Assembly (NCBI GenBank): GCA_024687165.1
Contig: JAILEY010000076.1
Span: forward strand, 82 to 64,081
From: Treponema sp.
GTDB lineage: Bacteria; Spirochaetota; Spirochaetia; Treponematales; Treponemataceae
DNA: 64,000 nucleotides
Direction of reading: 5' to 3'
The position numbers and the translations under genes are program-made. Within the stretch, counting starts at the first letter, position 1; each line of letters opens with the position of its first letter. The notes beneath the pieces were generated by a model that was not told the origin of the DNA, ran no database searches, and saw only the letters and a program-made list of their open reading frames with translations. Shown here piece by piece: positions 8,844-62,350 of this stretch.

Positions 8844-9039
8844 CTCCCAGTCGCGTTGAGTAGTCCAAAACCGTGCTATATAGCACTATATACTGTTTGT
8901 TGCAAATTAACTATTAATTATGTCGCTTTCGCGACCGCAACAAACAGAATATTTTCGTCCTGCTCAACACTCCTTCGCGCCAATTTTATTCCATTTATGA
9001 TAATTCGAGATTAAGGCTGCTCAGAAATAAACTCCCAGC
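8844..9039 (+). repeat. Modular intergenic repeat, copy A (with ~90-nt structured insert)
   Basis: CTCCCAGTCGCGTTGAGTAGTCCAAAACCG 8844-8873; CTCAACACTCCTTCGCGC 8963-8980; CTCAGAAATAAACTCCCAGC 9020-9039; these modules recur elsewhere in the window. Confidence 0.85.
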
Positions 9040-9098
9040 GGGGCCCCAATCCGAAATTCGTTTTATTTACAAAAATTTAAAGATAAATTAAAATGATA

Positions 9099-9114
9099 AC
9101 TAACAAATGTTAGT
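9099..9114. promoter_or_regulatory. Candidate TetR operator
   Basis: Palindrome ACTAACA-AA-TGTTAGT 14 bp upstream of a TetR start. Confidence 0.55.
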
Positions 9115-9128
9115 CAAAGGGGAAACAG

Positions 9129-9800
9129 ATGGCAGAAAAACTTTCAAACGACCAGATTATTAAGGCTCTTCTTGATGCAGCTTTTTTCAGATCAGCGGGA
9201 GATACAAGTCTGGCAAATGTAGCAGATAATCTTGGAATAAAAAAAGCTTCCCTTTACAATCACTTTGAAAGCAAGCTGGATATGATGAATAAAGCAACTG
9301 AATCCTGCGGTGAATATATCAATGGAATAAATTTTATTCCAAATGACGTTCGGGGTGTTGCCCAGCGATATCCGGCAGAGACTGTTCTTAAGGGACTCGT
9401 TTCAAGATATGTTAAAATGCACGAAAAAGATCCTCTGTTTCAAATTTACACATTTCTTGAAAGTCAGAAATTTTTTGATTCAAATGCAGCAAGACTGATT
9501 GAAGAAAGAAACAAAAGACTTGTTGAACAGACTGAAACAGTTCTGATTGCACTCTTTGAACACAACAAAATTTCAATTCAGAAATTCCAGATTCACGGTG
9601 CGGCAGTTTGGTTCTGTGCAGGAATGAATGATCTTTTAAGCAGTTATCTTCTTACAAGAAAAGAAGTTGTAAAACAGAATCCTCCGTCTGGTGAAGGTGA
9701 ACTTTTTACCCTCGAAGCAGACGAAGAATCAATAGAAAGAATAAACAAATTTGTAGAAGAATTTGCAGTTCTTTTAAAACATTTCCAGGCGGCGAATTAG
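9129..9800 (+). CDS. TetR/AcrR family regulator
   Basis: N-terminal HTH SLANVADNLGIKKASLYNHFESK. Confidence 0.88.
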   Translation: MAEKLSNDQIIKALLDAAFFRSAGDTSLANVADNLGIKKASLYNHFESKLDMMNKATESCGEYINGINFIPNDVRGVAQRYPAETVLKGLVSRYVKMHEKDPLFQIYTFLESQKFFDSNAARLIEERNKRLVEQTETVLIALFEHNKISIQKFQIHGAAVWFCAGMNDLLSSYLLTRKEVVKQNPPSGEGELFTLEADEESIERINKFVEEFAVLLKHFQAAN

Positions 9801-61236: not shown

Positions 61237-61290
61237 GAACTACTTATCGGCATAAAAAAAACAGTATTTTAATAATATTACCGTAAAATT

Positions 61291-62208
61291 TTAGAAGAAC
61301 TTCCATTCTGTTTCGTTGACTTTTTCTACAGATAAACCTTTTTCAAGGCAATTCAGAATTTTCATCAGTTTTTTTTCATAATAAGTTTCAGGGACAACGG
61401 AAAGTGAAATTTTATTTTCAAAGATTTTATACAGACCTTCTGTTGATGCATTAAGACATACTACAAAAGAATCTTTAGACAGCGTTCTTCCTTCTTTAGA
61501 AAGCGCCTTTGCAGCAAGAACAGCCTCTTTTTCAGAGAAAGCAAAAATCAAATTGATTTCAGGATGAAGCTCACAAAAATCTACTGCTTCCTGCAAATTT
61601 TCAGAATTAGTTCCATTCAAGATTTTCTTTTGTACGAACGAATTTGTATCCTTTTGCTGCATCGTTTTTAACACGCCGGAATACATCAGCCTGTAGCTTG
61701 AAGAATTTTTCCCATCATGAAGGATTGCATAATTTAAATATTTAATGTCAGGATTGATTTCTTTTATCTGCTTTTGAATTTTTTCCGCAGCAAGGCTTGA
61801 ACTTTTTTCAAAATCACAGCCAATTCTGCAGTAGTACAAATAATCCTTTGTGTTGCCGACATAATTTCCGCAGAAGATAACAGGAATCCTTTTTTTGTTT
61901 ATTTTTTCAAGAAGCTCATGCCAGATAGGTTCGTCGATCGGATCTATTAAAAAAAGATGAACGTCAGCATCAAGATATTTTTCAACAACTCTCAGCTGTT
62001 CTTTAGAATCCCCTTTTGCATCTTCAACAACAAGCTTGTAGCCGGAAAGTGCTTTTTTTACGGATTCAATTTCACTCATGCGCCCGTTATTTCCGAATGA
62101 ACTGGTGGAATAAACTACAAGTTCTTCTTTCAGCTTGTTTTTATCAACACAACCGCAGAGTATAAAAATAAAAAAAGCCGTAAAAATCAGGCAGAATCTT
62201 CTGTTCAT
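61291..62208 (-). CDS. Sugar-binding periplasmic lipoprotein (RbsB-like)
   Basis: Lipobox LCGC; DAKGDSKEQ, LLIDP, IPVIF; class I periplasmic binding-protein pattern. Confidence 0.78.
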   Translation of the reverse strand: MNRRFCLIFTAFFIFILCGCVDKNKLKEELVVYSTSSFGNNGRMSEIESVKKALSGYKLVVEDAKGDSKEQLRVVEKYLDADVHLFLIDPIDEPIWHELLEKINKKRIPVIFCGNYVGNTKDYLYYCRIGCDFEKSSSLAAEKIQKQIKEINPDIKYLNYAILHDGKNSSSYRLMYSGVLKTMQQKDTNSFVQKKILNGTNSENLQEAVDFCELHPEINLIFAFSEKEAVLAAKALSKEGRTLSKDSFVVCLNASTEGLYKIFENKISLSVVPETYYEKKLMKILNCLEKGLSVEKVNETEWKFF

Positions 62209-62251
62209 ACCTTCAATTTTACGGCAATATAAGTTAAATGTCGAGTTTCTC

Positions 62252-62350
62252 TATAAAAATACTCAGAAATTAACTCCCAGTCGCGTTGAGCAGTCCAAAA
62301 CCGATGATCAACACTCCTTCGCGCTAATTTTACATCTATAAAAAATCAAC
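62252..62350 (+). repeat. Modular intergenic repeat, copy E (most complete)
   Basis: TATAAAAATACTCAGAAATTAACTCCCAGTCGCGTTGAGCAGTCCAAAACCGATGATCAACACTCCTTCGCGCTAATTTTACATCTATAAAAAATC. Confidence 0.88.

Follow-up and report, generated by a model that had tools for sequence, protein, structure and literature searches.

Repeats at five intergenic sites

We analyzed a stretch of 64,000 nucleotides from a Treponema contig (the window; G+C 37.5%), in which the original prediction had described five dispersed repeats, each built from some combination of three short modules called M1, M2 and M3. The genes neighboring the repeats are unrelated to one another and of a housekeeping kind, with Pfam assignments to UMP kinase, an FtsJ-like methyltransferase, KDPG aldolase, a NusG-II protein, ApbE, a sugar-binding protein and PTS EIIC. 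Pattern searches of the window recovered all three modules where they had been placed, with none expected by chance, and we conclude that the five-copy family is real. M1 had three matches with up to three mismatches (9020, 25216 and 62262), compared to 0.01 in shuffled sequences; M2 had two matches under the same limit (8851 and 62281), with 0 expected; and M3 had three exact matches (8964, 32368 and 62308), with 0.12 expected. The junction of M1 and M2, CTCCCAGTCGCGTTGAG, was matched three times, one of these being a degenerate copy at 11164. Every module match was on the plus strand of the window, in agreement with the single-strand claim, and all matches were intergenic as judged from the map of open reading frames and from Pfam. 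A profile search of the window detected no copy beyond those already known.

The five sites had been located correctly, but the copies are larger than had been described, copy 2 for example occupying approximately 11126-11208. Judged by their sequences, the five repeats appear to be copies, mostly decayed, of one hairpin-forming mobile element of ~200 bp.

Architecture of the element

The sole full-length element in the window is copy 1 (8830..9006, minus strand). It has a palindromic core of 160 nt at 8833-8992 and a 5' tip, GAATTATCATAAATGG, that ends at 9006 on the minus strand, which is the "sense" strand of the element. We aligned copy 1 with full copies from a sheep-rumen contig (L070), from an ENA contig (L092), and from one locus present in several assemblies (L093/L094). 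These five full sequences, from four independent loci, align over ~165 nt with a mean column identity of 91%, and all of them carry a block of 90 nt that could be taken for an insert.

The element forms a single imperfect palindrome; its core is ~160 nt, and with its AT-rich ends it measures ~200 nt. Read along the minus strand of the window, the canonical 5' tip of ~20 nt (GATWKTTTATRRRTTTAAT) is followed by one half of the outer stem (AATAAAATTGGC) and, 3' of that, by a purine-rich arm (GCGAAGGAGTGTTGAGCAGG). The central domain consists of three hairpins, in which a long stem (CTGTTTGTTGC/GCAACAAACAG) encloses GTCGC-GAAA-GCGAC and is followed by a short variable palindrome. The arm CGGTTTTGGACTGCTCAACGCGACTGGGAG and the other half of the outer stem (GCCAATTTTATT) lie 3' of the central domain. 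Where it is kept, an AT-rich trailer of ~30 nt forms the 3' end; in copy 1 the trailer is absent or unrecognizable. The internal inverted repeat is strong over 12-13 nt (AATAAAATTGGC) and extends imperfectly to ~23 nt. No inverted repeat is formed by the outermost ~10-20 nt, as read from a polymorphic insertion (5' GATAG..., ...TTAAGAT 3'). The end sequences of the element are 5' GATWKTTTATRRRTTTAAT... and 3' ...AAATTTAAAATTAAGAT.

The region of copy 1 contains a 38-nt inverted repeat, and M2 and M3 therefore lie inside a palindrome that is much larger than either. The pairing that had been proposed between M2 and M3 does exist, but it makes up only the inner part of the ~160 nt palindrome closed by the outer stem AATAAAATTGGC/GCCAATTTTATT. 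The unpaired sequence CACTCCTT, to which a special role had been attributed, is part of an internal loop rich in purines, which is the same in almost every copy (one differs by a single change), and its position there is uninformative either way. M1 is the 3' arm of the element (CTGGGAG-TTAATTTC on the minus strand) extended by ~10 nt with similarity to the 5' tip of another copy.

The element is non-coding. The longest open reading frame in the element has 52 codons' worth of sequence (52 aa) and only one relative in the protein database. The only reading frame preceded by a Shine-Dalgarno-like sequence begins with TTG, and we rejected it as a small peptide: the AAGGAG is just 2 nt from the TTG and, by eye, the frame ends differently in copy 1 and L070. 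A promoter in the AT tail was likewise rejected; a sigma-70 scan called no site there, and the sites that it did call belong to the neighboring genes.

Short copies and decay by internal deletion

In most metagenome copies, ...CCAAAACCGATG is followed by CTGTACAGCATCTATAT(T/G)CTGTTTG..., which is the 90-nt domain of copy 1. Because all five full-length copies (four independent loci) have this domain, as do most copies in the metagenomes, the 90-nt "insert" represents the canonical state rather than cargo, with the long form canonical and copy 5 a deleted form. Copy 5 (62252..62347, minus strand) has both arms complete and an M1-type 3' end, and its central three-hairpin domain of ~85 nt is deleted, leaving ATGA. 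It is conserved in sister strains, and metagenomes contain a short subfamily with the same, or nearly the same, junction.

The other short copies differ in what they have lost. Copy 2 (11126..11208, minus strand) is heavily deleted and retains the 5' tip, the halves of the outer stem, CTCAATGCGACTGGAAG and the AT-rich 3' trailer; at the same locus, a strain that is 98% identical (L075) has an additional deletion of 7 nt (CTCAATG). Copy 3 (25205..25237, minus strand) is an isolated M1 remnant (minus-strand sequence GCTGGGAGTTGATTTCTGAGTATTTT) that is found at single-copy depth and is conserved in sister strains. Copy 4 (32349..32424, minus strand) is a composite with its interior deleted, in which the 3' arm of one copy (32410-32424) is followed by a second copy's 5' tip and 5' arm (M3) and then by a remnant of a 3' arm. 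Here, 12 nt (similar to ACTCCCAGCGGA) are kept by the sister ortholog L072 and by run X6 and are gone from the window. Beside copy 1 there is a second M1 (9017..9056, minus strand), reading CTCAGAAATAAACTCCCAG and then CGGGGCCCCAATCCGAAA, which is the leftover 3' arm of an adjacent, older copy. Its flank is rearranged in one sister strain, and the depth of metagenome contigs over it (bins 9027-9057) is back to the single-copy level.

At least five different deletion junctions occur among the short copies. Distinct junctions are found in copy 2, in its further-deleted form in L075, in L073b, and in copy 4 with its 12 nt fewer than L072 and X6, and the X12 version of copy 1 has a junction of its own (CTCCCAG-TCGCG-CCAATTTT). 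Since the junctions differ, the deletions are independent, as expected for long hairpins, and this counts against assembly from shuffled modules. The description of the family as three shuffled, partly duplicated modules was therefore not supported: each short copy is an independent internal deletion of one element, with its own junction, and it is this decay by internal deletion that gives the appearance of modules.

Host and abundance

The UMP kinase of the window is closest to Treponema proteins (nearest named species T. rectale, 79% identity), and DNA of the window is found in sheep and cattle gut metagenomes with a word share of 0.3-0.5. We conclude that the host is a rumen Treponema. In the sheep and cattle gut metagenomes that contain the organism, the depth of the element summed over contigs was ~40-200 times that of its flanks, a ratio that adds up contigs from possibly several strains or species and is not a true copy number. 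For contigs aligned to copy 1, the depth of the flanks was ~8-15 in runs X3, X6 and X12, compared to summed depths of 485-1130 over M2 and ~2000-2500 over the most conserved ~50 nt; both sums were lower in run X1. The depth ratio for copy 5 was 21-52. From 84 to 118 contigs per run touch the element, many of them ending inside it, and contigs with unique flanks have the depth of the organism itself in each run. The depth ratios agree with the density in the window, approximately one copy per 13 kb.

Besides the five copies and one polymorphic site in the window, we identified eight further loci in sheep-rumen contigs. A scan of metagenomes gave seven loci, five of them cut inside the repeat. 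The element is thus present as many dispersed copies. A search for exact occurrences of GCGCGAAGGAGTGTTGA in 185,579 species genomes returned 67 matches, each a single one and in unrelated taxa; chance alone would give about as many, and the two in spirochetes were coding sequence. Viral contigs, phage records and plasmid records contained no match to the element.

A polymorphic insertion with a 19-bp target duplication

The comparison with sister strains revealed an empty site in the window at 27246..27264, with the sequence CAAATTAAACATCAATTTA, that is filled in the sisters and has the 19-mer on both sides there. Across four runs, contigs on the left match the window up to 27264 and contigs on the right match it from 27246 (27243 in X12). 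Their loose ends belong to the element and read ...TTCGCGCCATTTTTATTAAACTCATAAACTATC at one junction and AACTTATTTTTAAATTTTTACTGATATACA... at the other. The X6 contig is co-linear with the window from ~9043 to 27264 and then ends in element sequence, and run X12 also contains a contig with the empty allele at 27246-27264. The 3' junction was read directly in contig L103 (...GGGAGCCAATTTTATTTGTATCTCAGTAAAAATTTAAAATTAAGAT/TAAATTGATGTTTAATTTG/AATTT), and the 5' junction is the consensus of the loose ends from the four runs. The contig ends in four runs, together with L103, establish that the 19-mer at 27246-27264 occurs once in the window and twice, around the element, in the sisters. The inserted element has the same orientation as the other copies, and the setting is AT-rich intergenic DNA. 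The alignment score between its two flanks was 19.5, compared to 9.8 ± 1.9 for controls that paired flanks of different copies. Based on these contigs, the element has moved recently and is still moving between strains of a rumen Treponema.

Similarity between the flanks of older copies, which are AT-rich, was no greater than the cross-copy background; the flanks of copy 2 have a suggestive repeat of 17/18. There is a clean target duplication at one insertion only, and no other insertion of this polymorphic kind turned up when the remainder of the window was scanned. In relatives, the orthologous spacers had no counterpart of copies 1 and 2, either at 94% protein identity (L076-78) or at 80-85% (L081-L091). 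These spacers, in relatives at 80-94%, are much shorter and are too diverged for the junctions to be defined to the base.

By eye, the 8 nt directly upstream of the 5' tip tend to TTAATTTY at the polymorphic insertion, copy 4, L071, copy 1, L074 and copy 2, and this flank consensus lies inside the duplicated target. An enzyme encoded elsewhere in the genome would mobilize the element in trans, cutting its target with a stagger of ~19 bp and preferring targets that end in TTAATTTY. The M1-type variant of the 3' arm (GGGAG-TTAATTTC) resembles TTAATTTY, and insertion next to it would account for the tandem and nested copies and for the M1 junction. As had been predicted, the window is free of transposases: no transposase, integrase, RAYT or TnpA/TnpB was found in it by Pfam scans of 48 open reading frames, complemented by Pfam labels of sister contigs for the remainder. 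We also found no autonomous partner with the same ends, either in the window or among the genes called on contigs of sister strains, for example L093.

DDE transposases usually make target duplications of 2-14 bp, and target-primed reverse transcription makes duplications of variable length. The 19 bp found here exceed the usual DDE range and are a typical length for target-primed reverse transcription. Copying through an RNA intermediate in this manner, as for a SINE, would explain both the long duplication and the strand bias, and the element is transcribed within longer RNAs. We nevertheless consider such copying exceedingly improbable. The element has no A-tail, its deletions are internal rather than a series of 5' truncations, the window encodes no reverse transcriptase, and only one duplication has been measured. 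In addition, the DDE elements IS1549 and IS1634 (IS1634 family) also make long target duplications, of 8-514 bp (PMC2266710). These two are the only bacterial insertion sequences for which we could document long duplications, a feature that the element shares with them. They differ from it in being autonomous, 1.5-2 kb in length and variable in the length of the duplication, and no matching transposase or end was seen for the element; the connection might at most serve as a lead.

The window contains a second polymorphic small insert, of 64 bp with two hairpins and a 20-bp direct repeat, at the 3' end of mnmE; it is absent in X6. According to a broader reading, to which we give a low probability, this Treponema has an insertion machinery that makes duplications of ~19-20 bp, longer than is usual for bacterial MITEs, and has the high-copy element as its main passenger; the 64-bp insert may then be another of its products, and the minus-strand RNA may have a role of its own.

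Folding, orientation and transcription

Mobility could instead be secondary, if the element served chiefly as a structured RNA or a regulatory module (a stabilizer of 3' UTRs, a terminator or a small RNA) attached to many transcription units, with selection acting on the minus-strand RNA. We think this unlikely, after weighing how the element folds, how it is oriented and how it is transcribed.

Copy 1 was predicted to fold very stably, with energies of -65.8 kcal/mol for the minus strand (z -9.8) and -53.9 kcal/mol for the plus strand (z -9.35). The minus strand folded better by 10-13 kcal/mol in all three sequences compared (copy 1, L070 and copy 5), as a regulatory RNA would lead one to expect, and its fold is a four-way junction with a GAAA-capped hairpin. 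This advantage is due to G-U pairs, which are invariant and inherited and hence do not constitute independent evidence for an RNA function. The consensus fold of the five full sequences has 59 pairs, three of which are changed on both sides. In metagenome contigs, pairs of the short hairpin are changed from T-A to C-G or A-T and from G-C to A-T, the two partners having the same contig depth, and there is an additional variant of the hairpin, ATGCTGTACAGCAT. These compensatory changes indicate that the hairpins are conserved, which also favors an RNA module, but because the G-U pairs that favor the minus strand never vary, constraint on the DNA and constraint on the RNA are inseparable in these data.

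All five copies in the window and the polymorphic one have a common orientation, which is co-directional with the genes in all three tandem contexts. Copies 2, 4, 5 and L071 begin 10-30 nt past an upstream stop codon, and a U-rich run lies 3' of the 3' arm. All of these features would suit a module of transcripts. However, the strand along which the element reads is also the one richer in G (GC skew of +0.105 for the minus strand of the window) and probably the leading one, so that effects of transcription and of replication direction are confounded in the window. The element is included in metatranscriptome contigs, but at low depth and mostly within longer contigs that continue into the flanks; these contigs carry no strand information, and no discrete RNA is visible among them. 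A terminator scan called none in the regions of copies 1, 2 and 5 that were scanned, and in L093 and L068 a native terminator already precedes the element. Gross deletions of the element, and its presence or absence between strains, are tolerated. As a mobile element, it would be co-transcribed in the orientation seen and may serve as a 3' stem-loop or terminator-like structure.

At gathering thresholds, Rfam matched only a tRNA in the whole window and no family to the repeats, which the original prediction had not assigned to a named family either. With E values up to 10, the sole notable match was to RAGATH-12 (RF03149), with 20.4 bits, E = 0.062 and a gathering score of 75; copy 5 gave nothing at permissive thresholds. 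The central domain aligns weakly with RAGATH-12 on the minus strand (CUGU..G, a hairpin capped by CGAAAG, AAU and GUA). It does not form the second hairpin of the RAGATH-12 model, and we do not assign the element to that family.

Relation to known small mobile elements

REPs are 20-40 nt in length, and REP or IS200/IS605 insertion occurs without target duplication. Elements derived from IS200/IS605 have no inverted terminal repeats and insert on the 3' side of a specific tetra- or pentanucleotide. A REP/BIME-type element handled by a RAYT (an IS200-like Y1 transposase), or a palindrome-associated element derived from IS200/IS605, would likewise be palindromic, intergenic, in a single orientation and made of several structured units. 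That the central domain weakly resembles RAGATH-12 recalls RAGATH-18, which proved to be a scaffold of TnpB guides (PMC11061315). The similarity score, however, is approximately one quarter of the gathering score. A unit of 160-200 nt with a 19-bp duplication is of the wrong size and kind for the REP/BIME reading that had been offered, and the window has no gene for RAYT or TnpA/TnpB. For an IS200/IS605 derivative, the presence of a target duplication is out of place, as is TTAATTTY, with its 8 nt located inside the duplicated target. We regard both types as very improbable.

Correia elements of Neisseria (CREE/NEMIS) are 100-155 bp in length, are present in ~100-300 copies, and have long and short forms that differ by an internal deletion. 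They are co-transcribed with their neighbors and can act as terminators, promoters or RNase III sites. They have sharp terminal inverted repeats of 26 bp and duplicate TA, whereas the AT-rich outer ends of the Treponema element are not inverted repeats and its duplication is 19 bp. ERIC size classes likewise differ by an internal block. The ERIC/IRU elements of the Enterobacteriaceae (RU-1, RU-2 and RU-3), like the element described here, are non-coding palindromes, of 100-170 bp, with no known transposase; they are imperfect palindromes that form stable stem-loops in many intergenic transcribed regions and are MITE-like, with a TA target duplication (PMC2759123). The element has no sequence relation to ERIC, its host is a spirochete, its orientation appears biased, and it duplicates 19 bp, in one clean case, rather than TA. 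With that duplication and with ends of GAT.../...GAT in place of TA termini, it belongs to neither ERIC nor Correia.

Taken together, the repeats are probably one family of small, non-coding, MITE-like (ERIC/Correia-like), non-autonomous mobile elements in a rumen Treponema species. At 160-200 bp the element is below the ~500 bp usual for a MITE and has no coding capacity, and in one case there is both a target duplication and an empty site in a relative. The MITE-like reading already suggested thus gains support from a high-copy, palindromic, strain-variable element with one cleanly duplicated target. Points against a MITE are that the clean target duplication is single, that the extreme ends are not inverted repeats of each other, that no autonomous partner was found in the window or on the sister-strain contigs, and that the shared orientation and the folding bias toward one strand are also explicable by a role of the RNA.

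Implications for rumen Treponema

The family is new, and its kind, small palindromic intergenic repeats, is common; we found no published description of a MITE-like family in rumen Treponema. The element breaks short-read assemblies of an abundant rumen spirochete, and its presence or absence at individual sites provides markers that separate very close strains. Its position right after stop codons means that it may end or stabilize transcripts. The 19-bp duplication is the one unusual feature and, if confirmed at more sites, would point to an uncommon transposition chemistry.

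A small insert, a strain-specific segment and an ORF with periodic repeats

One metagenome run with a sister strain (X6) lacks an 84-bp segment of the window at the 3' end of mnmE (57377-57460), and its sequence joins 57376 directly to 57461. Of these 84 bp, 64 nt are an insert that contains two hairpins, and the other 20 nt are a single copy of the direct repeat ATTCTG(T/C)GTAGGAAAATAAA. Contig depth over 57377-57460 was that of single-copy sequence. The long direct repeat of this insert is similar to the 19-bp target duplication of the main element, the palindromic MITE-like repeat.

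At the left end, window 1-2162 is a strain-specific segment. The sister-strain runs (3 of 3) part from the window sequence at 2162, where the loose end reads AAGCTGACGGGGTCTTTGCGGGGTGTCCCC, and an ORF of 697 aa (2-2092), which had no match in Pfam, is nearly uncovered in them. Pfam likewise gave no match for a 642-aa ORF on the minus strand (48750-50678). Much of this ORF's repeat content is a long stretch with a 9-nt period, whose units resemble TTCTTCAAC when read on the plus strand, and its predicted product is an acidic Glu/Val-rich repeat protein.

Element copies and their flanks in related strains

The orthologous element copies of one locus in two assemblies (L093 7053-7225 and L094 3930-4102) differ at approximately 10 positions and have near-identical flanks. 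Either copies of the element have undergone gene conversion, or the assemblies are chimeric within the repeat.

In the 98%-identical strain, the ortholog of the copy 1 flank (window ~9040-9060; L075 12030-12182) contains an inverted duplication, TTTCGGATTGAGGCTC ... GCGGGGTTCCAATCCGAAA, enclosing ~95 nt, together with a piece in the opposite orientation that resembles M1, the module that includes the element's end arm. Either the sequence here was inverted locally, or the flank carries another small palindromic element.

For the relative at 94% protein identity, five contigs assembled from separate runs (L076-L080) all have the same first base, 66 nt upstream of the UMP kinase gene, which suggests that the copy 2 position is occupied by a different repeat in that lineage.
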